IMG/VR virus record: IMGVR_UViG_2740892270_000011
Direction: 5' to 3' (one strand)
DNA: 8,247 nt
Source: a virus
Taxonomy: Duplodnaviria; Heunggongvirae; Uroviricota; Caudoviricetes
Numbering within the stretch: position 1 is the first letter of the stretch; every line of letters begins with the position of its first letter. The notes beneath the pieces are model-generated. The model searched no databases and was not told where the DNA came from. It saw only the letters and a program-made list of their open reading frames with translations. Made by a program: the position numbers and the translations under genes. Below are positions 1 to 8,247 of the stretch, piece after piece.

Positions 1-61
1 CATCAGATGGCTGCTTAAAAAAAGAACAAATGGTAGTGTCCGCTATTGCCAGTACACCTCA
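1..61. repeat. Left arm of a perfect 61-bp inverted repeat (partner 8150..8210); abuts the window edge so may extend further left
   Basis: Reverse complement of 1..61 equals 8150..8210 at 61/61 positions; identity breaks at 62 versus 8149. Confidence 0.9.
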
Positions 62-203
62 GGGTATAAGGGGTTATGGCCACCGGACTACCAAACGGCT
101 GCCAGCCCTCTTTCAGTTTATGTGTCAGCTTTTCCGCAAGATCTGACGGCGGCGCCGCCCTGACAACATCATAGTGTTTAAATGCCATGGTTCTTTCCAC
201 CAT
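15..203 (-). CDS. Small late-region phage protein, 57-62 aa, resembling the DUF1737-type proteins found just upstream of lysis genes; start is ATG at 203 or more likely ATG at 188
   Basis: Open frame with TAA at 15..17. Sequence MAFKHYDVVRAAPPSDLAEKLTHKLKEGWQPFGSPVAI fits the DUF1737 pattern as recalled (Y.VV...LE..L.EGW.P.GSP); not verified. Weak SD-like GGTGGAAAG precedes the ATG at 188. The last 14 codons and stop lie inside the inverted repeat. Confidence 0.5.
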   Translation of the reverse strand: MVERTMAFKHYDVVRAAPPSDLAEKLTHKLKEGWQPFGSPVAITPYTLRCTGNSGHYHLFFF

Positions 204-448
204 CTGAAAAATAATTCTTTAAAATACCTGACATGTAATACAGAAAAAACACAAAACCATACCTTAAATAAAAACCTGATTATCAAGCAGATATGCATGG
301 ATAAACTACAAGACGAGATATAAACCACCCTGCATTTAAATAAACAATAAACAACATCAGAAAAATAATTCTGCTCTATGGTTTACATTCAAAAATATCA
401 TTTATACTTTTCAGAACATCACCAGCAAGGCATAAACAAGGAAACTAA

Positions 449-784
449 ATGAAGTGGATTGTGATTGATACAGTTATCCAGCCATCATGCGGAATATCTT
501 TTTCAGTCATATGGAGTAAAATAAAATTAATAATCTGGTATCAATCGGATGCTTTCTTACCTCCTGAAAGTATATTTACACTGACTCACACAGGCATCAT
601 GCTCAATAACAAAGTGCTACCTGTAACCATTTACAACGTAGTACCATTCAATAAAACATTCTGGAATTCAATCAAAAATAGCCAGGAATGCCCTACAAAT
701 ACAGATAACGTATTGAATGAATGCTTTAATAACCGTTGCACTCTGCAAATATGTCCTTATGGACTAAAACAACAAAGTCCATAA
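449..784 (+). CDS. Hypothetical 111-aa protein in an AT-rich island, with a C-terminal Cys pattern C-x10-C-x4-C-x4-C; no family recognised
   Basis: SD AAGGAAA (438..444) lies 4-6 nt before ATG 449. A 111-codon open frame is unusual in DNA this AT-rich. Opposite strand to the late operon. Confidence 0.4.
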
Positions 785-787
785 GGA
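754..787. repeat. 12-bp perfect inverted repeat (tccttatggact / agtccataagga) with a 10-nt spacer, spanning the last codons and stop of ORF 449..784
   Basis: Direct reading: 754..765 is the reverse complement of 776..787. Confidence 0.7.
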
Positions 788-804
788 GTTTACTCACATC
801 TGAC

Positions 805-840
805 AAAATCAATATAAACAGCCCCTCCGGAGAGGGGCTG
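805..840 (-). terminator. Candidate intrinsic terminator for minus-strand transcripts (9-bp GC-rich stem, 4-nt loop, then a T-rich tract)
   Basis: Stem cagcccctc (819..827) pairs with gaggggctg (832..840). On the minus strand it is followed by TTTATATTGATTTT. Confidence 0.35.
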
Positions 841-1079
841 GAGAGTGGCGCTATGTGCCATTGCATGGTGCCGGGTGCCTCCCGGTGAATTCAGTACCAG
901 CACCTGAATCCGCGATTATCCCATATACCTACTCGCTGATTGCCCCTCCGCACAGGGGGATTCACCATGCCAGTTTCTTTTAACAAACTCCCCGCAAAAC
1001 AGACAACTGTCAACCGTCTGAATTGTGAAGTATTTAAAAATTTCTCCCGCTAACTGATACCCGGCTAACAGTCTGGCGT

Positions 1080-1329: not shown

Positions 1330-1382
1330 CCAGCGACCTGGCGATTATGAGTCGCTCGCTCTCACCACTGAGCTAAAGGGCC
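1330..1382 (-). tRNA. Partial tRNA (5' 53 nt visible, 3' part inside the N block), ileZ-like tRNA-Ile2/Met type with anticodon CAU
   Basis: Minus-strand sequence GGCCCTTTAGCTCAGTGGTGAGAGCGAGCGACTCATAATCGCCAGGTCGCTGG shows acceptor, D-arm, and anticodon loop CTCATAA (CAU). It closely resembles E. coli tRNA-Ile2 as recalled. Confidence 0.6.
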
Positions 1383-1422
1383 GGGAGCCGCATAATAACG
1401 ACGCGTAATTAATTCTTCAATA

Positions 1423-2481
1423 TCATCCGTTCTGGCTGACTAAATCCTGTACTTCCCGAACCGTCTGCTCAAAACGTTCAGTCTCCAGCTCAACGCCAAT
1501 TGCACGACGCCCGAGCGCCAGTGCCGCTTTCACTGTCGAACCCAACCCCATGAAAAAATCTGCAATCAGGTCACCCGGACGACTGCTAGCGCTGATTATC
1601 TGCTGCAGCATTTCTGCCGGTTTTTCGCACGGATGTTTCCCGGGATAGAACTGCACCGGTTTATGCGTCCACACATCGGTATACGGCACCTGCACCGTCA
1701 CGCCAAAATACCGCCGCAGATGTTTATATTCACTCAGCAGCTCCGCATACTGCCGGTTCAGTGAGGTATACGTATCCACCAGCTGGTGGTGGAGCTTTTC
1801 CAGTTCACCACGCCGATGCTTCTCTTCTGCCACCCGGGCAAACAGCGCCTGTAATTTCAGATAATCGCTTTCATTCGGCAACTGCCACTGACCGGCACTG
1901 AACCAGTGCGACACCATGTTTTTCTTTCCTGTGGCATCTGCAATCTGTTTTGCCGTTATCCCCAGGGCAGCTCGCGCATCACGAAAGTAAGAAATCAGCG
2001 GGGCCATCACATGCTGTTTCAGTGCACTGCCCTTCGCCGCATACCCGGCATCTTTCGGACGATACGGCCCCTGATAATGTTCCGCGAACAGAATGCGCTC
2101 TGTGGCGGGGAAATACGCCCGCAGGCTTTCCTTGTTGCATCCGTTCCAGCGTCCGGACGGCTTCGCCCAGATAATATGGTTCAGCACACTGAAGCGTTCA
2201 CGCATCATGATTTCGATATCAGATGCCAGGCGATGACCACAGAACAGGTAAAGACTTCCGGCAGGTTTCAGCACCCGCCAGAACTGCGCCAGACACTGGT
2301 CCAGCCACTTCAGGTAATCATCGTCGCCCTTCCACTGGTTATCCCAGCCCTCAGGCTTCACTTTAAAGTACGGCGGGTCCGTGACTATCAGGTCAACAGA
2401 ATTTTCGGGTAACGACCGGATAAATTCCAGGCAGTCGGCGTTGATTAACTCACAACTGGATATTTTTACAGTATTAAGCAT
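1423..2481 (-). CDS. DNA N6-adenine/N4-cytosine methyltransferase, beta-class order (DPPY motif before the AdoMet FxGxG motif), 352 aa; prophage cargo
   Basis: LIVTDPPYF near the N-terminus and DFFMGLGST near the C-terminus. A central segment (ITAKQIADATGKKNMVSHWF) looks like a helix-turn-helix insert. Full-length open frame. Confidence 0.9.
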   Translation of the reverse strand: MLNTVKISSCELINADCLEFIRSLPENSVDLIVTDPPYFKVKPEGWDNQWKGDDDYLKWLDQCLAQFWRVLKPAGSLYLFCGHRLASDIEIMMRERFSVLNHIIWAKPSGRWNGCNKESLRAYFPATERILFAEHYQGPYRPKDAGYAAKGSALKQHVMAPLISYFRDARAALGITAKQIADATGKKNMVSHWFSAGQWQLPNESDYLKLQALFARVAEEKHRRGELEKLHHQLVDTYTSLNRQYAELLSEYKHLRRYFGVTVQVPYTDVWTHKPVQFYPGKHPCEKPAEMLQQIISASSRPGDLIADFFMGLGSTVKAALALGRRAIGVELETERFEQTVREVQDLVSQNG

Positions 2482-2490
2482 GGATCATTA

Positions 2491-2600
2491 AGCCTGTCTC
2501 TGATAGGCTCATTCTGCTTTTGCGCAAAGCAGTGGGCCTGAGGTTTGCTTGTGAACCCAACGCATGAGCAGATGGCTGGTGGGTGCCCCTAACACCCACC
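2491..2600. promoter_or_regulatory. Cluster of three palindromes in the 5' leader of the methyltransferase gene; candidate operator or RNA structure
   Basis: agcct..aggct (2491..2509); near-perfect 19-nt palindrome ctgctttTGCGCAaagcag (2514..2532); 8-bp stem ggtgggtg / cacccacc (2578..2600). None is followed by a U tract. Confidence 0.35.
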
Positions 2601-2608
2601 AGCCGCCC

Positions 2609-2872
2609 NNNNNNNNNNNNNNNNNNNNNNNNNNNNNNNNNNNNNNNNNNNNNNNNNNNNNNNNNNNNNNNNNNNNNNNNNNNNNNNNNNNNNNNNNNNN
2701 NNNNNNNNNNNNNNNNNNNNNNNNNNNNNNNNNNNNNNNNNNNNNNNNNNNNNNNNNNNNNNNNNNNNNNNNNNNNNNNNNNNNNNNNNNNNNNNNNNNN
2801 NNNNNNNNNNNNNNNNNNNNNNNNNNNNNNNNNNNNNNNNNNNNNNNNNNNNNNNNNNNNNNNNNNNNNNNN
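2609..2872. other. Run of 264 N (masked or unsequenced); hides the 3' end of the unknown cargo gene
   Basis: Literal n characters. Confidence 1.
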
Positions 2873-3146
2873 TGTTGTACTCCTGAACAAGAGCAAATAA
2901 TTCTGAATTAGCAACCATGAACTCATCGCAAACCCTCTGTATAGCATCACTATTCAGAATAATAACGTCTCTTCCCGAAAGACGATCAGGAGTACAGAAC
3001 AAAACTGTCAAACGGCTGAAGGCCTTTGCTCGTGCTGCATTGACTATATCAATACGCTGCCTAAGGATGAAACACCCCGACGCCTCATCAATATTCACTC
3101 TACCCACACCATATGAATGATAAATATTTAATGCTGAAAAAACCAT
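2873..3146 (-). CDS. Hypothetical protein, N-terminal 91+ aa visible with the C-terminus inside the N block; AT-rich; no family recognised
   Basis: Frame open from ATG 3146 (the track extends to a TTG at 3173) down to the N block: MVFSALNIYHSYGVGRVNIDEASG... No convincing SD, so the start is uncertain. Confidence 0.3.
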
Positions 3147-3283
3147 TAGACCGTATAACAAACACTCAATCAATACTTAACAGAACTTTTATTTTTGACA
3201 AACATAAAATATTTTCAACAATATCCTGAGCCAGGTATATTTCAGTATAAGGCTCTGCCGGAAGGAATCTGGAAGAATGAATA

Positions 3284-3360
3284 TGGCGCGCTGTACTGGA
3301 TTCGAACCAGTGACCGATTGCTTAGAAGGCAATTGCTCTGTCCGGCTGAGCTAACAACGC
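3284..3360 (-). tRNA. tRNA-Arg with anticodon UCU (reads AGA), the argO/argN-like rare-codon tRNA typical of lambdoid late regions
   Basis: Minus-strand 77-nt cloverleaf: acceptor GCGTTGT / ACAGCGC, D-arm GCTC..GAGC, anticodon stem ATTGC / GCAAT with loop CTTCTAA, T-arm ACTGG-TTCGAAT-CCAGT, encoded CCA. Confidence 0.85.
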
Positions 3361-3399
3361 TGAATACCGATAATGGACCGCCATCGGGGACCCGCCCCC

Positions 3400-3659
3400 N
3401 NNNNNNNNNNNNNNNNNNNNNNNNNNNNNNNNNNNNNNNNNNNNNNNNNNNNNNNNNNNNNNNNNNNNNNNNNNNNNNNNNNNNNNNNNNNNNNNNNNNN
3501 NNNNNNNNNNNNNNNNNNNNNNNNNNNNNNNNNNNNNNNNNNNNNNNNNNNNNNNNNNNNNNNNNNNNNNNNNNNNNNNNNNNNNNNNNNNNNNNNNNNN
3601 NNNNNNNNNNNNNNNNNNNNNNNNNNNNNNNNNNNNNNNNNNNNNNNNNNNNNNNNNNN
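3400..3659. other. Run of 260 N (masked or unsequenced) between the tR'-like terminator and tRNA-Arg; could hide further tRNAs
   Basis: Literal n characters. Confidence 1.
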
Positions 3660-3730
3660 ATAACTCTTGTCGAAAAAGCCAGCAAGCTGAAAGACAGGTA
3701 TTCACCGCCACCAGCGCGTTTACTGTACTG

Positions 3731-3760
3731 ACGCGATTTCAGTCATAAAAAACCCGCTCG
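3731..3760 (-). terminator. Intrinsic terminator downstream of the Q-like gene (tR'-like position)
   Basis: 7-bp stem aacccgc (3741..3747) / gcgggtt (3754..3760), 6-nt loop; on the minus strand it is followed by TTTTTTAT. Confidence 0.6.
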
Positions 3761-3833
3761 GCGGCGGGTTGTAGAAACTCTTCTAACGTCAGGCATAAAA
3801 CGCCCATCGTTATAACGAATTTACCACAGATTC

Positions 3834-4164
3834 CGGAAAAATCAACCTTGTTACCTAGTTACCTTTTTTANNNNNNNNNNNNNNNNNNNNNNNNNNNNNN
3901 NNNNNNNNNNNNNNNNNNNNNNNNNNNNNNNNNNNNNNNNNNNNNNNNNNNNNNNNNNNNNNNNNNNNNNNNNNNNNNNNNNNNNNNNNNNNNNNNNNNN
4001 NNNNNNNNNNNNNNNNNNNNNNNNNNNNNNNNNNNNNNNNNNNNNNNNNNNNNNNNNNNNNNNNNNNNNNNNNNNNNNNNNNNNNNNNNNNNNNNNNNNN
4101 NNNNNNNNNNNNNNNNNNNNNNNNNNNNNNNNNNCGGAAAAATCAACCTAGTTACCTTTTTTAA
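3834..4164. repeat. Near-identical direct repeat immediately flanking the N block 3871..4134 (copy 1 at 3834..3870, copy 2 at 4135..4164)
   Basis: Both copies read cggaaaaatcaacc-tagttacc-tttttta. Copy 1 carries an extra ttgttacc 8-mer. Copy 2 is in-frame coding sequence of the Q-like gene. Confidence 0.8.
3871..4134. other. Run of 264 N (masked or unsequenced); hides the 3' end of the Q-like gene and any late promoter
   Basis: Literal n characters. Confidence 1.
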
Positions 4165-4965
4165 CTGCCGCTCAGCCCATGCTTCTTCAATATCAAACCG
4201 AGTCACCAGCGCATCATAGAATTTCTTAACTGTTTTTTCCCATGACGCGCGTGTTATCTGGTTTGTCACCTCGCATATAGCATTAAATGCCTCCGTTGAT
4301 GGTAGTCTTTCATAGCCACGACCACCACAACGCTGGCAGTCTCTGATAACAGGCATACCACGTTTTACCGACTCTTCACGATGAATGGCGACACCACGCC
4401 CACGGCAATCCTTACAGGCGGTGGAAACCTCACCCTTTCCGCCACACTCCGGACAGGCAACTTTTACCACCTCCCTGACTTTTTTCCATTCTTCCCAGTA
4501 AGACGGATACACACCTTTCGTACACTTTGCCCATACCGGCGGCTTACCATCCGGATACTGGATCTTGTTTGTAAAAACCTCGCTTTCAATAAATTTTTTT
4601 CCGTGACAGCAGGGGCACTGTTTTTTGCTCGCCGCGCTACGGGCATAATCTTCAAACGCATACGAAGCCATAATACGCATCACTGCCGGTTTTATTTCTG
4701 CCGGGAGTTTTCTTAACGCCGCCACGCGATCACACCGACTGAGTGCATATTCTGTCAGCAATTCTGTTGCCCGCTCTCTGTCATTCATACTAATGCCCAT
4801 TTTCCCAAGGAACGCAGAAACCCCCATCTCAGCCCGATTCTGTGTCATGCCCTGCGCGGCCATCACATCAGTGATACTCAGCGCATCTTTCGACGTTGAG
4901 GCCGATGCATCAGTCAGGCCGGGGGATTTTGGGGAGTAGTATTTCGGTAAATCTTCCAGTTTCAT
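4135..4965 (-). CDS. Q-like late antiterminator with a DnaJ-type zinc-finger module; 277 codons visible, 3' end inside the N block
   Basis: Four CxxCxGxG repeats (CPCCHGKK, CPECGGKG, CKDCRGRG, CQRCGGRG). N-terminus MKLEDLPKYYSPKSP resembles Q proteins of Qin-type prophages as recalled (unverified). Start ATG overlaps the rusA stop (ATGA). Sits in the canonical Q slot between rusA and the terminator/tRNAs. Confidence 0.65.
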
Positions 4966-5253
4966 TTTTTGACCTGCCCTTCAAGCATTATGGGATAAAT
5001 CTTCACCCCCAGACGTCCACCAGATACTGGCTGAGCACGAACGATATTGATTTCATCAAACTGCTCATCGTCCATTAGCAACCCCGCATGCGTCAGCGCA
5101 TCCAGCGGCGCTTTCAGAATATTGTCCAGGTCACGGCGGCGCTTATCCGGTGGTTCTGCAATAATTTTTATTGCCAACCTTCCGGACAGGCTTAATTTCA
5201 GCCGCTGCTGGCGAACAATAAGCGCCACTGCCCGGCGATAACGCTCCCCGGCT
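4962..5253 (-). CDS. rusA: Holliday-junction resolvase RusA; C-terminal 97 aa visible, 5' end inside the N block
   Basis: PDKRRRDLDNILKAPLDALTHAGLLMDDEQ...GGRL matches the RusA catalytic core of E. coli RusA ([30 protein letters not shown], from memory). Stop TGA at 4962..4964. Confidence 0.85.
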
Positions 5254-5503
5254 NNNNNNNNNNNNNNNNNNNNNNNNNNNNNNNNNNNNNNNNNNNNNNN
5301 NNNNNNNNNNNNNNNNNNNNNNNNNNNNNNNNNNNNNNNNNNNNNNNNNNNNNNNNNNNNNNNNNNNNNNNNNNNNNNNNNNNNNNNNNNNNNNNNNNNN
5401 NNNNNNNNNNNNNNNNNNNNNNNNNNNNNNNNNNNNNNNNNNNNNNNNNNNNNNNNNNNNNNNNNNNNNNNNNNNNNNNNNNNNNNNNNNNNNNNNNNNN
5501 NNN
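5254..5503. other. Run of 250 N (masked or unsequenced); hides the rusA start and the end of the DUF968-like gene
   Basis: Literal n characters. Confidence 1.
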
Positions 5504-6407
5504 CAGCCTTTGTTCCCATCCCTCCCAGTCCATGACCAATGATGTGATGCGGATCATCTGCCTGATTGCCACACGTCATGCATTTCTGCGTTTTTACCCA
5601 GCGCGTGTATACAGGCATCTCTTCCCGTTGTGATTTCTGGCGCTGGAGATACTGAGCCGGTGACTCCGGATCAACGGCAATGCTGACCACCGTCTTTTCC
5701 TGTGGTGGGTTCTGTTGCTGGTGGACGTGAGGCAGTAACGCAATATTTTTTGTGCGCTGCTTCAGTATGCTGGTGGCTGTCTGCTCTCCCGGTATGATGT
5801 CGCTTTCACTGTACACAGAGCGAATTTTTTCCGCACGCAACCCCAGCGAACGACGTAATACCGCTTCCGGTAGCGCGTCCGCCACCTGATTGCGGACCGC
5901 CCACCAGGATAATTCAGCCAGAGATAATTCACGCTCCTGCGTACCGCTTATTGCGTGACCGATGACGTCAATCATCCATGCTGACAGGTTTTGATGAGCA
6001 AGTTGCTCGAGTGATTCGGATGTCTGGTCACGCAGCTGGTTGTCGCAGTGCCAGCACAACACCATTGCGCCGGTACCATAACGGTGAATGACGGTTTCGC
6101 TGTGATGATAATCGCCGTGTGGCCACTGGCAGGATTTAATATGGCGCAACAGCCAGTCAGACAATGCACCAGCACCACCAGCAGCACGAATCACCCGTGC
6201 GTTACTGAAAAACGGCAGCAATGTTTTGTCTTCCACCAGCGGCTGGCGAGCGGCAGGAACGACCCCGGACGGCAGATTACGCATGCTTTTTGGTTCCGGC
6301 TCCACCAGTATTCTGCCGTTATGGAATGCTGACATTGATTCACGGCCTGGCTTAACGATAACCAGACCGAGTTCCGGTACCAGAACAGGTCGAAGTAATA
6401 CCCGCAC
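5504..6407 (-). CDS. Lambdoid nin-region protein, DUF968/YdfU-like (family name from memory); 301 codons visible, 3' end inside the N block
   Basis: Long open frame starting at GTG 6407 behind GGAGG. Cys/His cluster CMTCGNQADDPHHIIGHGLGG just before the N block. Position immediately upstream of rusA. Confidence 0.65.
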
Positions 6408-6482
6408 ATTACCTCCAGATCCGTTGCTGGAATGTGCGGGACGGACGCGTTGGCCGTTCGGAGTAAGGGAGCCTGACGGAGA

Positions 6483-6764
6483 TTATCCAGTGACGGTAGT
6501 CGAGGCTAAGGGCTTTTTTAACCTCGCATCCGCGCCTGCGGTAACACTGAATGAGCCATTCGGCCTGTTCTTCAGTGCATGGGGGATGCTGGTACCAATC
6601 AGATTTAAATGCGTGAGAGCGCCGCCCGTGCCTGCTGGCAAAGACGGCTGAATTATCAGAATTGTGTAGTCTGGAAGGCAGTGGCTGACAATAGCGCCAT
6701 TCTCAACGCGCACAGTATAGAGGCCATCTTCACTAAAAATTTCACGTAATTCTTCGATTTTCAT
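6483..6764 (-). CDS. Hypothetical small protein (93 aa) between hok and the DUF968-like gene; C-terminal half is low-complexity and may be frameshifted or over-extended
   Basis: ATG 6764 preceded by GGAAGGA with an 8-nt spacer; N-terminus MKIEELREIFSEDGLYTVRVENG looks protein-like. Confidence 0.4.
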   Translation of the reverse strand: MKIEELREIFSEDGLYTVRVENGAIVSHCLPDYTILIIQPSLPAGTGGALTHLNLIGTSIPHALKNRPNGSFSVTAGADARLKKPLASTTVTG

Positions 6765-6846
6765 CAACAGAATCCTTCCAGATAAATAGCACTCCCCTGT
6801 TCGGGGTCCATCCCTCTTCTCCCTGCGCGCTACTTAAGTATTTTTG

Positions 6847-6876
6847 ATTCTATTCCGGCACCATCTAAAACTTCAA
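6847..6876 (-). promoter_or_regulatory. Candidate sigma70 promoter (TTGAAG, 18-nt spacer, TAGAAT) reading leftward into ORF93, DUF968-like, rusA and Q-like
   Basis: On the minus strand the -35 is at 6871..6876 and the -10 at 6847..6852, immediately downstream of the hok terminator. Confidence 0.35.
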
Positions 6877-6884
6877 ACGCGTTG

Positions 6885-6916
6885 AAAATAAAAACAAAAA
6901 CCCGCCGAAGCGGGTT
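6885..6916 (-). terminator. Intrinsic terminator downstream of hok
   Basis: Stem aacccgc (6899..6905) / gcgggtt (6910..6916) with loop cgaa; on the minus strand it is followed by TTTTTGTTTTTATTTT. Confidence 0.6.
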
Positions 6917-6984
6917 AAGTGTGGGTGCATTGAGGATGCCTGCCCCATCAGAGGTGGCGAGGGATTTCTCCCCCGCCTGGTCTC

Positions 6985-7140
6985 TTACTCCTCAGGTTCG
7001 TAAGCTGTGAAGACAGCGACCTCCGTCTGGCCGGTTCGAATTCGTACCTCGCAGAGGTCTTTCCTCGTTACCAGTGCCGTCACTATGACGGTTAAACAGA
7101 TGACGATCAGGGCGATTAACATCGCCTTTTGCTGCTTCAT
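6985..7140 (-). CDS. hok: Hok-family type I toxin (51 aa, single transmembrane helix); an in-frame upstream ATG at 7197 would give a 70-aa mok-like extension
   Basis: MKQQKAMLIALIVICLTVIVTALVTRKDLCEVRIRTGQTEVAVFTAYEPEE carries the Hok signature (LTRK.LCE.R, EVA.F.AYE). SD AAGGAG lies 9 nt before ATG 7140. Leader resembles hok mRNA leaders as recalled. Confidence 0.85.
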   Translation of the reverse strand: MKQQKAMLIALIVICLTVIVTALVTRKDLCEVRIRTGQTEVAVFTAYEPEE

Positions 7141-7188
7141 AGCCTGCTTCTCCTTGCCTTTCGGCACGTAAGAGGCTAACCTAGATTT

Positions 7189-7260
7189 GCCGTTCATAGA
7201 TTGAGCCTCAGATTAATGTTAAGCGTCTTGCCGGACGCGTAATGTTAACTGGGGCTTTTC
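7189..7260 (+). ncRNA. Candidate Sok-like antisense RNA opposite the hok leader and mok-like start; boundaries approximate
   Basis: Plus-strand promoter-like TTGCCT (7154..7159), 17-nt spacer, TAACCT (7177..7182) lies inside the hok 5' region in the position expected for sok. No clean terminator found. Confidence 0.25.
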
Positions 7261-7316
7261 TCTATCTGCCTTTTGGTGTTCATGCCTGAGACAGATAGCC
7301 TCAAGCACCCGCTGCA

Positions 7317-7344
7317 ATTCTACTTAACTCTCCTTTTCCCGCAA
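7317..7344 (-). promoter_or_regulatory. Candidate hok promoter (TTGCGG, 16-nt spacer, TAGAAT) with predicted transcript 5' end near 7310
   Basis: The -10 is at 7317..7322 and the -35 at 7339..7344 on the minus strand. The predicted mRNA begins GGGUGCUUGAGGCU..., resembling the 5' end of plasmid R1 hok mRNA as recalled. Confidence 0.45.
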
Positions 7345-7431
7345 ACCGTTTTTATCCCCAGCGGCAAATCGAATACACCACCAGCGCCACCGCCATCGCA
7401 ATTCCTACCGTTGTTAATGCTTCAGGCCAGG

Positions 7432-7776
7432 TCATCGTAAAATATCCTCCACGCTTATCAGTCCGTTCCGCTCCAGATAACTCATCGCCTTATCCGGTAA
7501 TTTGCAGTCTGGCTTCGCTTTCCTCAGTTGCCAGGTTAACTGCTTTACCAGCATGGTTAACTCATCGACCAGACGCTGATATCCCACTGGTTTGTATTCA
7601 TGCAATTTACCGGCTGGCTCTGCTGCCAGCGATACCAGTGCGATTTCCAGAACAGCAATATCCATCTTATATGTGCGGATGATGTCATGGTCGATTGTGC
7701 CCGGTATGCACAGTCTCTGTGCTTCAATAGTCTCCTCTGCGTGAGCTATTAACTGCTCTCTGGTAAAAGTCGTCAT
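7432..7776 (-). CDS. Hypothetical small protein B (114 aa), paralogous at its N-terminus to upstream gene A; unknown function
   Basis: ATG 7776 preceded by AGAAGGGG with a 7-nt spacer; start overlaps the stop of A (ATGA). Sequence [12 protein letters not shown]...[10 protein letters not shown]... Confidence 0.55.
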
Positions 7777-7940
7777 GCCGTAGCCCCTTCTTGATATTTT
7801 TCAAACCAGAACACAACCGGCTCTGCTTCCAGCGATGCCAGCGCAATCCGTGCCAGTTCCATTTGTTCACCACGGGTAAGCCCGTTTTCAAGCGGGTTTT
7901 TAATGAACAATTCAATACGTTCTTTGGTAATAGTGGTCAT
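7773..7940 (-). CDS. Hypothetical small protein A (55 aa), translationally coupled to B; absent from the supplied ORF track because it is short
   Basis: ATG 7940 preceded by AAGGAG with a 6-nt spacer. Hand translation [55 protein letters not shown] with TGA at 7773..7775. Confidence 0.5.
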
Positions 7941-7950
7941 GTGTTACTCC

Positions 7951-8181
7951 TTAACCCGCAGTGCTTTCAACTGATGAGGGGAACAAAATCTTTTCATCAA
8001 ACCCTGCATTCATATCATGAACAGCAACACACCAATCCATCGACGAACGATTATCAAGAGCCTCCATGATTTCATCCATGCGGCGTAGGTCATACAGGTA
8101 AATGCTTTTATCGCCAATGGTGTAAAAGCCAATTTTTTTCGGTGATGGATGAGGTGTACTGGCAATAGCGGACACTACCAT
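7951..8181 (-). CDS. Hypothetical ORF76; its first 10 codons lie in the right arm of the inverted repeat, so it may be a truncated or chimeric gene
   Basis: Open frame whose TAA stop (7951..7953) sits inside the SD region of gene A, an operon-like arrangement. No clear SD before ATG 8181; coding quality uncertain. Confidence 0.35.
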   Translation of the reverse strand: MVVSAIASTPHPSPKKIGFYTIGDKSIYLYDLRRMDEIMEALDNRSSMDWCVAVHDMNAGFDEKILFPSSVESTAG

Positions 8182-8210
8182 TTGTTCTTTTTTTAAGCAG
8201 CCATCTGATG
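8150..8210. repeat. Right arm of the perfect 61-bp inverted repeat (partner 1..61); carries a detached copy of the 3' end of the DUF1737-like gene
   Basis: Plus strand here encodes ..RCTGNSGHYHLFFF* as at the left arm, but the frame is closed by TGA at 8143..8145 just upstream. Confidence 0.9.
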
Positions 8211-8247
8211 ATATTTTTCCCTGAAGGCTGCCGGGGAGATATTCCCC

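Follow-up and report, generated by a model that had tools for sequence, protein, structure and literature searches.

Lambdoid prophages carry accessory genes (morons) between Q/pR' and the lysis cassette, and stx is the classic case of such cargo. The M.EcoGII family of DNA methyltransferases is well studied and is already a commercial reagent. M.EcoGII itself (paralogue M.EcoGI; E. coli O104:H4 C227-11) is non-specific and methylates adenine whatever the surrounding sequence (Murray et al. 2018, PMC5778455). It is encoded by a prophage, is unexpressed in the lysogen and is harmful when constitutively expressed, and the methylase of phage 1720a-02 has been named as a very similar relative (PMC5778455). 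In the Stx2 phage Stx2a_1447 (AP012536), the late region runs Q, a gene for a protein of 65 amino acids (aa), a DNA methylase, ileZ, argN, argO, stx2A and stx2B. Here we compare with these systems an 8,247-nucleotide (nt) stretch of DNA, the IMG/VR virus record IMGVR_UViG_2740892270_000011 (the whole stretch is called the window below), in which a beta-class N6-adenine DNA methyltransferase gene and an AT-rich open reading frame (ORF), here called orf92, appear side by side between two tRNA genes. An earlier reading of the window, made from its letters alone (the sequence-only reading), had placed both genes in the slot where Stx phages carry stx and had proposed that they could form a pair, an orphan methyltransferase with an anti-defence, defence or virulence partner.

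Our analysis indicates, with a probability of roughly 80%, that the window was stitched together from two lambdoid prophage remnants of Shigella sonnei and that its real content is a methyltransferase module and a separate orf92 module. The adjacency of the two genes between two tRNAs is very probably an assembly or scaffolding artefact, and the most likely origin of the stitching is a short-read scaffold that merged two paralogous loci bounded by insertion sequences (IS). Locus A (L004-L013, S. sonnei chromosomes) was found by look-up of the exact methyltransferase protein, which it shares with the window, and has the order IS, hok, DUF968, RusA, Q, 65-aa gene, methyltransferase, three tRNAs and IS, without the AT-rich ORF. 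Locus B (L014-L023, also S. sonnei) was found by look-up of a 62-aa product encoded across the junction of IS and DUF1737 at the left end of the window; its order is IS21, RusA, Q, ileZ, tRNA-Arg(UCU), the AT-rich ORF, DUF3927, IraM, the truncated DUF1737 gene and IS, without a methyltransferase. Window positions 1-1079 (99.7% identity) and 2873-3399 (100%) align to locus B, whereas 1330-2608 (100%), 3660-3870 (99.5%), about 4135-5253 (99.8%, with the first dozen bases of B type; 4146-5253 is 99.8% identical to L004) and 5504-8247 (99.96%) align to locus A. All four switches between the loci fall inside runs of N, which make up 15.6% of the window. In the E. coli locus L001, the order is Q, tR', 65-aa gene, hairpins, methyltransferase, ileZ, tRNA-Arg(UCU), the AT-rich ORF, DUF3927 and IraM, and relative to this order the segments 1330-2608 and 2873-3399 are swapped in the window; the piece 3660-3870 is followed in locus A by the 65-aa gene and then by the methyltransferase. 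The elements listed in the sequence-only reading, namely tRNA-Arg(UCU), a partial ileZ-like tRNA(CAU), the methyltransferase, three hairpins, the AT-rich ORF, Q and a terminator, were all recovered (ARAGORN, Rfam, PF01555 and RNA folding). The neighbourhood that it drew from them, with the ORF and the methyltransferase between the two tRNAs, did not hold up: the pieces alternate between loci A and B, and the switches lie in the N-runs. The features of the window are as follows.

1-1079, no strand: piece P1, locus B, 99.7% identity to L014/L018 (S. sonnei CP049169, CP000038)
1-58: end of an IS3-family IS, within P1
15-203, minus: truncated DUF1737 gene, within P1
449-784, plus: IraM (NF007393, E 4.7e-48)
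810-999, minus: small RNA STnc100 (133.6 bits, E 4.5e-30, full-length family match)
1065-1079, minus: 3' end of the DUF3927 gene
1080-1329: N-run, locus B to locus A; the left flank matches locus B only and the right flank locus A only
1330-1382, minus: ileZ-type tRNA (CAU), 5' 53 of 76 nt, 100% alignment to L004 7152-7100
1423-2481, minus: beta-class N6-adenine DNA methyltransferase, 352 aa, M.EcoGII family, orphan (PF01555, E 7.9e-42)
2482-2608, minus: structured methyltransferase leader with three hairpins (RNA fold), contiguous with the methyltransferase in natural loci
2609-2872: N-run, locus A to locus B, the claimed link between methyltransferase and ORF
2873-3098, minus: orf92 (phrog_2873), 75 visible codons of the core, 100% identity to L014 7919-7694
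3099-3283, minus: AT-rich spacer from tRNA-Arg to orf92, 31% guanine plus cytosine (GC)
3284-3360, minus: tRNA-Arg(UCU), argN/argO type, locus B copy (ARAGORN; Rfam 68 bits)
3400-3659: N-run, locus B to locus A, flanks assigned by alignment to both loci
3660-3870, minus: locus A late-promoter/tR' region downstream of Q, 99.5% identity to L004 5619-5409
3770-3751, minus: intrinsic terminator
3871-4133: N-run between pieces that overlap in locus A
About 4140-4965, minus: Q antiterminator (PF03589 on the 273-aa product in L004-L013)
6985-7310, minus: hok/sok type I toxin-antitoxin module (Hok ORF 7197-6985; sok RNA 7310-7135, 112 bits)

The genes of interest all lie on the minus strand and constitute the late-regulation region of a lambdoid prophage. 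Read from right to left, the window presents hok/sok, DUF968, RusA, Q, the terminator, tRNA-Arg(UCU), the AT-rich ORF, the hairpins, the methyltransferase and the partial ileZ-type tRNA; to the left of the N-run 1080-1329 stand the end of the DUF3927 gene, STnc100, IraM (plus strand) and the truncated DUF1737 gene, which abuts the IS end. The remaining 3' 23 nt of the ileZ-type tRNA fall in this N-run, and the intact tRNA is present at L004 7100-7175 (ARAGORN).

The distances between the pieces in their own loci contradict the view that the N-runs are masks that preserve length. The 263-N run at 3871-4133 separates two pieces whose ends share 18 bp in locus A (L004 5409-5426 aligns both to window 3853-3870 and to window 4146-4163), and its length is instead the true locus B distance from Q to the piece with tRNA-Arg and orf92, the equivalents of these pieces (P5 and P3) being separated by a gap of 263 bp in the N-free contig L034. 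The 250-N run at 5254-5503 replaces 244 bp of locus A between flanks that are 99.8-99.96% identical to it. In locus B, the equivalents of window 1079 and window 2873 are only 205 bp apart, compared with 1,793 bp in the window. Measured from the Q piece, each in its own locus, the pieces lie at -37 (A), +263 (B), +428 (A) and +995 (B), and sorting them by this distance reproduces the window order exactly, as is expected from a distance-ordered merge of two alternative paths. A sequence of ~30 bp from the 3' end of Q flanks the 263-N run twice, at window 3832-3870 and 4134-4165; an 8-bp duplication, ttgttacc, is present in one copy (locus A type) but not in the other (locus B type), and therefore the Q piece 4134-5253 begins as locus B and goes on as locus A. 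The same B/A hybrid at the 3' end of Q occurs in L034, at 100% identity.

If the window order were real, an illegitimate or IS-mediated rearrangement would have brought tRNA-Arg(UCU) together with orf92 into the interval from Q/tR' to the methyltransferase, with the N-runs masking sequence of equal length. We consider this improbable. Prophage remnants of S. sonnei have indeed been heavily rearranged by IS elements, N-free hybrids do occur (L034, for example, combines the left arm of locus A with the right arm of locus B), and the 263-N run has a length that exists in locus B. However, a real order would require at least three non-homologous junctions, each of them hidden in an N-run, and would have to accommodate both the 263-N run between pieces that overlap in locus A and the 250 N that stand for 244 bp. 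Moreover, the window order was present in no N-free sequence. The 5' end of the methyltransferase lay within 950 bp of the ORF in 0 of 5,426 complete E. coli genomes, so that the flanks of 2609-2872 are joined in none of them, and a pattern bridging this N-run had no match in IMG/VR, in 185,579 species-representative genomes or in JGI metagenome contigs; the hidden bases were thus not recovered as a link. We collected 124 IMG/VR loci, for the most part around this methyltransferase allele; the 14 of them that are N-free and hold both genes all follow the order Q, 65-aa gene, methyltransferase, tRNAs and orf92. The sole two exceptions to this natural order in the set are the scaffolds L104 and L100, which have single-N joins and whose pieces are 100% identical to the S. 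sonnei loci; in them, locus B contigs are spliced into locus A as in the window. Three points nevertheless speak against a stitched window. The lengths of the N-runs are near-constant (250-264), unlike usual gap estimates. The piece ends do not match the boundaries of the exact repeats shared by loci A and B, and therefore a simple model of de Bruijn-graph breaks and assembly gaps does not fit. Finally, the N-runs may be masks over real sequence instead of scaffold gaps.

That the methyltransferase and orf92 are a functional two-gene module, with orf92 as an anti-defence, defence or virulence partner, appears hardly credible, even though the two share a strand as late-operon cargo and are found within about 2 kb of each other in 493 complete E. 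coli genomes. These 493 compare with 2,021 of the 5,426 genomes for the methyltransferase family and 1,314 (24%, CFT073 included) for orf92, and in N-free sequence the two are never adjacent: two tRNA genes stand between them, with the methyltransferase first. Each gene also occurs without the other. The methylase is missing beside orf92 in L003, L014-L023, L034 and phage mEp460, and orf92 is missing beside the methylase in S. sonnei locus A. In a set of 50,697 phage records the query stretch had 291 matches, chiefly Stx2 phages carrying this methyltransferase, and 290 of these are without orf92; the one phage record with orf92 (mEp460_ev081) has it at the same position. The constant neighbour of the methylase is the 65-aa phrog_331 gene. 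The two genes are thus distributed independently and are not a pair. It is also very improbable that the AT-rich ORF is not a gene at all, that is, a frame open by chance within an AT-rich spacer, or else a regulatory or small-RNA region. The ORF is unannotated in the near-identical RefSeq copies listed, it has no Pfam or NCBIfam family, and, with identities of at least 99% among most E. coli copies, conservation within the clade is uninformative. A second clade with 67% DNA identity is informative: across the 92 codons there is no indel or stop, the ratio of nonsynonymous to synonymous substitution rates (dN/dS, Nei-Gojobori) is 0.27 in this frame compared with 1.18 and 0.82 in the other frames, and the differences by codon position (25/23/43) show a third-position excess. 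Homologues of equal length with a shared motif extend to 22% identity, the family is already in PHROGs, and AlphaFold2 gave a confident model from only 6 sequences. The coding status assumed in the sequence-only reading is therefore borne out.

In the methyltransferase (352 aa), PF01555 spans residues 29-340, and PADLOC assigns MTase_II at E 4.6e-163. The motif order is that of the beta class, with TDPPYF at residues 33-38 (N-terminal), a central recognition domain and FMGLG at residues 310-314 (C-terminal). The enzyme is identical to M.EcoGII at 324 of 349 residues (93%) and shares with it the beta-class layout and the setting in a lambdoid prophage; the methylase of phage 1720a-02 is 95% identical. 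The M.EcoGII reference was taken from Table S1 of the SUPREM paper (PMC11551740), in machine-read text with few errors, and the true identity is probably slightly higher than 93%. By sequence, the methyltransferase thus appears to be an allele of an already known, characterised family. The two proteins differ in length (352 aa instead of 349 aa) and in the C-terminal tail, and the allele has FMGLG where M.EcoGII has FMGSG (S to L) in motif I. This substitution and ~20 others, several of them in the recognition domain, weigh against a simple transfer of function; by homology, the window allele would nonetheless be predicted to methylate adenine in essentially any context.

In natural loci, the module runs Q, pR'/tR', the 65-aa gene (phrog_331), the structured leader, the methyltransferase, ileZ, argN (and argO), and then the cargo. 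The neighbours of the methyltransferase in these loci are the 65-aa gene and tRNA genes, with no cognate restriction endonuclease gene beside it, and the methyltransferase is therefore an orphan, as the sequence-only reading had suggested. Its match to a characterised orphan phage methylase with ordinary neighbours was an outcome that the same reading had said would count against its proposal. The placement in the stx slot fared no better for this gene. The methyltransferase is upstream of ileZ/argN in every N-free locus; Stx2 phages have ileZ, argN, argO and stx2AB downstream of it, and there it coexists with the toxin genes. It is consequently a backbone gene upstream of the stx slot that is shared with Stx2 phages, and not slot cargo. 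In these phages, the block of 65-aa gene, leader, methylase and ileZ has 94.6% DNA identity to window 1330-2608, and everything in it is behind pR'/tR' and Q-dependent, as in the window; the window differs in being without stx, and the native post-tRNA slot in Shigella and E. coli holds orf92, DUF3927 and STnc100. The number of tRNAs also differs, with three in S. sonnei locus A and two in locus B. What does stand is that whatever follows Q, pR' and tR' downstream on this strand is cargo of the late operon. Only orf92, natively right after tRNA-Arg(UCU), occupies the position of stx, and the slot argument therefore applies to orf92, and solely in its native context.

The methyltransferase gene is prophage-borne and lies downstream of Q and the intrinsic terminator in the lambdoid late operon. 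Because it sits behind tR', the gene would be expected to be silent in the lysogen and to be transcribed solely upon antitermination by Q after induction. The enzyme could then broadly methylate replicating phage DNA, so that the progeny may be shielded from many restriction systems that are sensitive to adenine methylation.

Expression may be further adjusted by the leader and by the 65-aa gene. As RNA of the coding strand, the 127-nt leader (2482-2608) folds with -57.8 kcal/mol (z = -3.87; 0 of 200 shuffles were as stable) into three stem-loops at 2491-2604, including a perfect 12-bp inverted repeat at 2574-2604, and the last hairpin ends about 10 nt before the methyltransferase AUG. The leader matches no Rfam family and is contiguous with the methyltransferase in the Stx2 phages, as part of the 94.6% alignment over 1330-2608, and in all IMG/VR loci; it may act by limiting translation or by stabilising the mRNA. 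Thus the three hairpins noticed in the sequence-only reading are real, but they belong between the 65-aa gene and the methyltransferase and not between the ORF and the methyltransferase. The 65-aa gene, found at L001 6914-7111 and L004 5653-5850, is absent from the window or hidden in it. In every locus long enough to cover this position, those of the Stx2 phages included, it is the upstream neighbour of the methyltransferase, and these two genes are a real conserved pair. The 65-aa product has weak winged-helix matches (e.g. TrmB, E 0.004) and could control the toxic methylase as a small DNA-binding protein.

The conserved core of orf92 has 92 codons from GTG 3098, of which the last 17 are hidden in the N-run. 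Alternative in-frame starts are present at ATG 3146 and TTG 3173, and the frame upstream of GTG 3098 is open in both clades with in-frame indels; the distant homologues begin at the 92-aa core, and the second clade has the same 92-codon length. The product matches phrog_2873 (PHROGs v4) end to end, residues 1-92 aligning to profile positions 17-108 at E 5.6e-58 (divergent clade, E 4.2e-46), and the function of this family is unannotated; the profile has 108 positions, corresponding to the version that starts at the ATG, compared with the 92-aa core shared with distant members. Consistent with the sequence-only reading, phrog_2873 was the only match, and no Pfam, NCBIfam or PADLOC family was found. 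A RHIM assignment was rejected because the Pfam match was sub-threshold. A profile search of 1.84 billion representative proteins returned only 20 family members, and the homologues have 91-106 aa and share the motif ERAxAFSxLTVxYxTPDR...ANxEL..LVxEYN. In the species representatives, orf92 is present only in E. coli, in Citrobacter braakii, where it lies just upstream of the lysis cassette, and in a 2.7-kb contig binned as a metagenome-assembled genome (MAG) of Bacillota. In this last contig (L031, JAEWMQ010000075.1, 2,736 bp), the homologue is 62% identical, and the contig is probably a mis-binned enterobacterial prophage fragment. In a locus of the divergent clade (L024 4990-5082), an IS2-like insertion sits directly upstream of the core GTG; the core is intact and gains an IS-derived N-terminal extension (119-aa product P0017). 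Taken together, the sequence comparisons argue that orf92 is a genuine, selectively constrained gene that is confined to prophages of Enterobacteriaceae.

In its native context in L014, orf92 starts 186 bp after tRNA-Arg(UCU), with the same layout in L001, L003, L030 and L033, and it is followed by DUF3927, STnc100 and lysis genes; RefSeq has no annotation under it in any near-identical copy listed. Its GC content is 43-44%, compared with 53% for the methyltransferase, so that it is visibly AT-rich, as had been noticed. On the coding strand, the spacer upstream (3099-3283) has a single sigma-70-like site (3218 to 3191), which is a consensus match only. Rare codons are frequent, AGA/AGG accounting for 5 of 10 Arg codons and AUA for 3 of 9 Ile codons, and are read by the adjacent phage tRNAs. 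With its low GC content, its AT-rich upstream spacer with a promoter-like site, its rare codons and its place between tRNAs and lysis genes, orf92 resembles the morons of lambdoid phages. Unlike them, it has no predicted toxin, effector, signal peptide or membrane segment. AlphaFold2 predicted two long helices connected through the conserved TPDR loop (average pLDDT, the predicted score of the local distance difference test, 84), and a Foldseek search with this model in PDB and BFVD yielded nothing beyond generic helical hairpins at E above 0.3. The model suggests that the product is a small cytoplasmic two-helix hairpin. Our best guess is that it would act as a late-expressed accessory protein (moron) that binds a host or phage protein, being neither an enzyme nor a partner of the methyltransferase. 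We suggest only tentatively, and regard as rather unlikely, that this stx-slot accessory gene encodes a protein-binding product that inhibits a defence or stress pathway of the host, with a role in anti-defence or lysogenic conversion, and that it would be made from the Q-dependent transcript and perhaps from a promoter of its own.

Other features of the window concern its ends and its left part. The ends (1-58 and 8153-8212, extending to 8247) form an exact inverted repeat of ~60 bp that is unmatched in E. coli relatives. They are the ends of two inverted copies of an IS3-family element, whose ORFs of 100 and 272 aa carry PF01527 and rve domains and by their sizes suggest IS600. Because inverted IS copies stand at both ends, the whole window is a block bounded by IS elements, a typical form for short-read contigs or scaffolds of S. 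sonnei. A look-up of the protein P0013 gave no recorded match. The IraM homologue, an RpoS-stabilising anti-adaptor, is prophage-borne and lies on the opposite strand inside the late region. STnc100, which has a strong terminator at its end, lies directly downstream of DUF3927; orf92, DUF3927 and STnc100 together resemble a single small transcription unit at the native locus (L014 7574-8385).

Overall, the eye-catching cargo pair is the product of joining paralogous remnants, with the probability given above, and no biology should be built on the adjacency of its members. The methyltransferase would add merely another allele to a known enzyme family. Small genes of late operons are often the source of anti-defence and host-modulating functions. 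The residual novelty of the window lies only in orf92, a small gene that appears to be constrained, is widespread, occupies the stx-equivalent slot and has been skipped by standard annotation.

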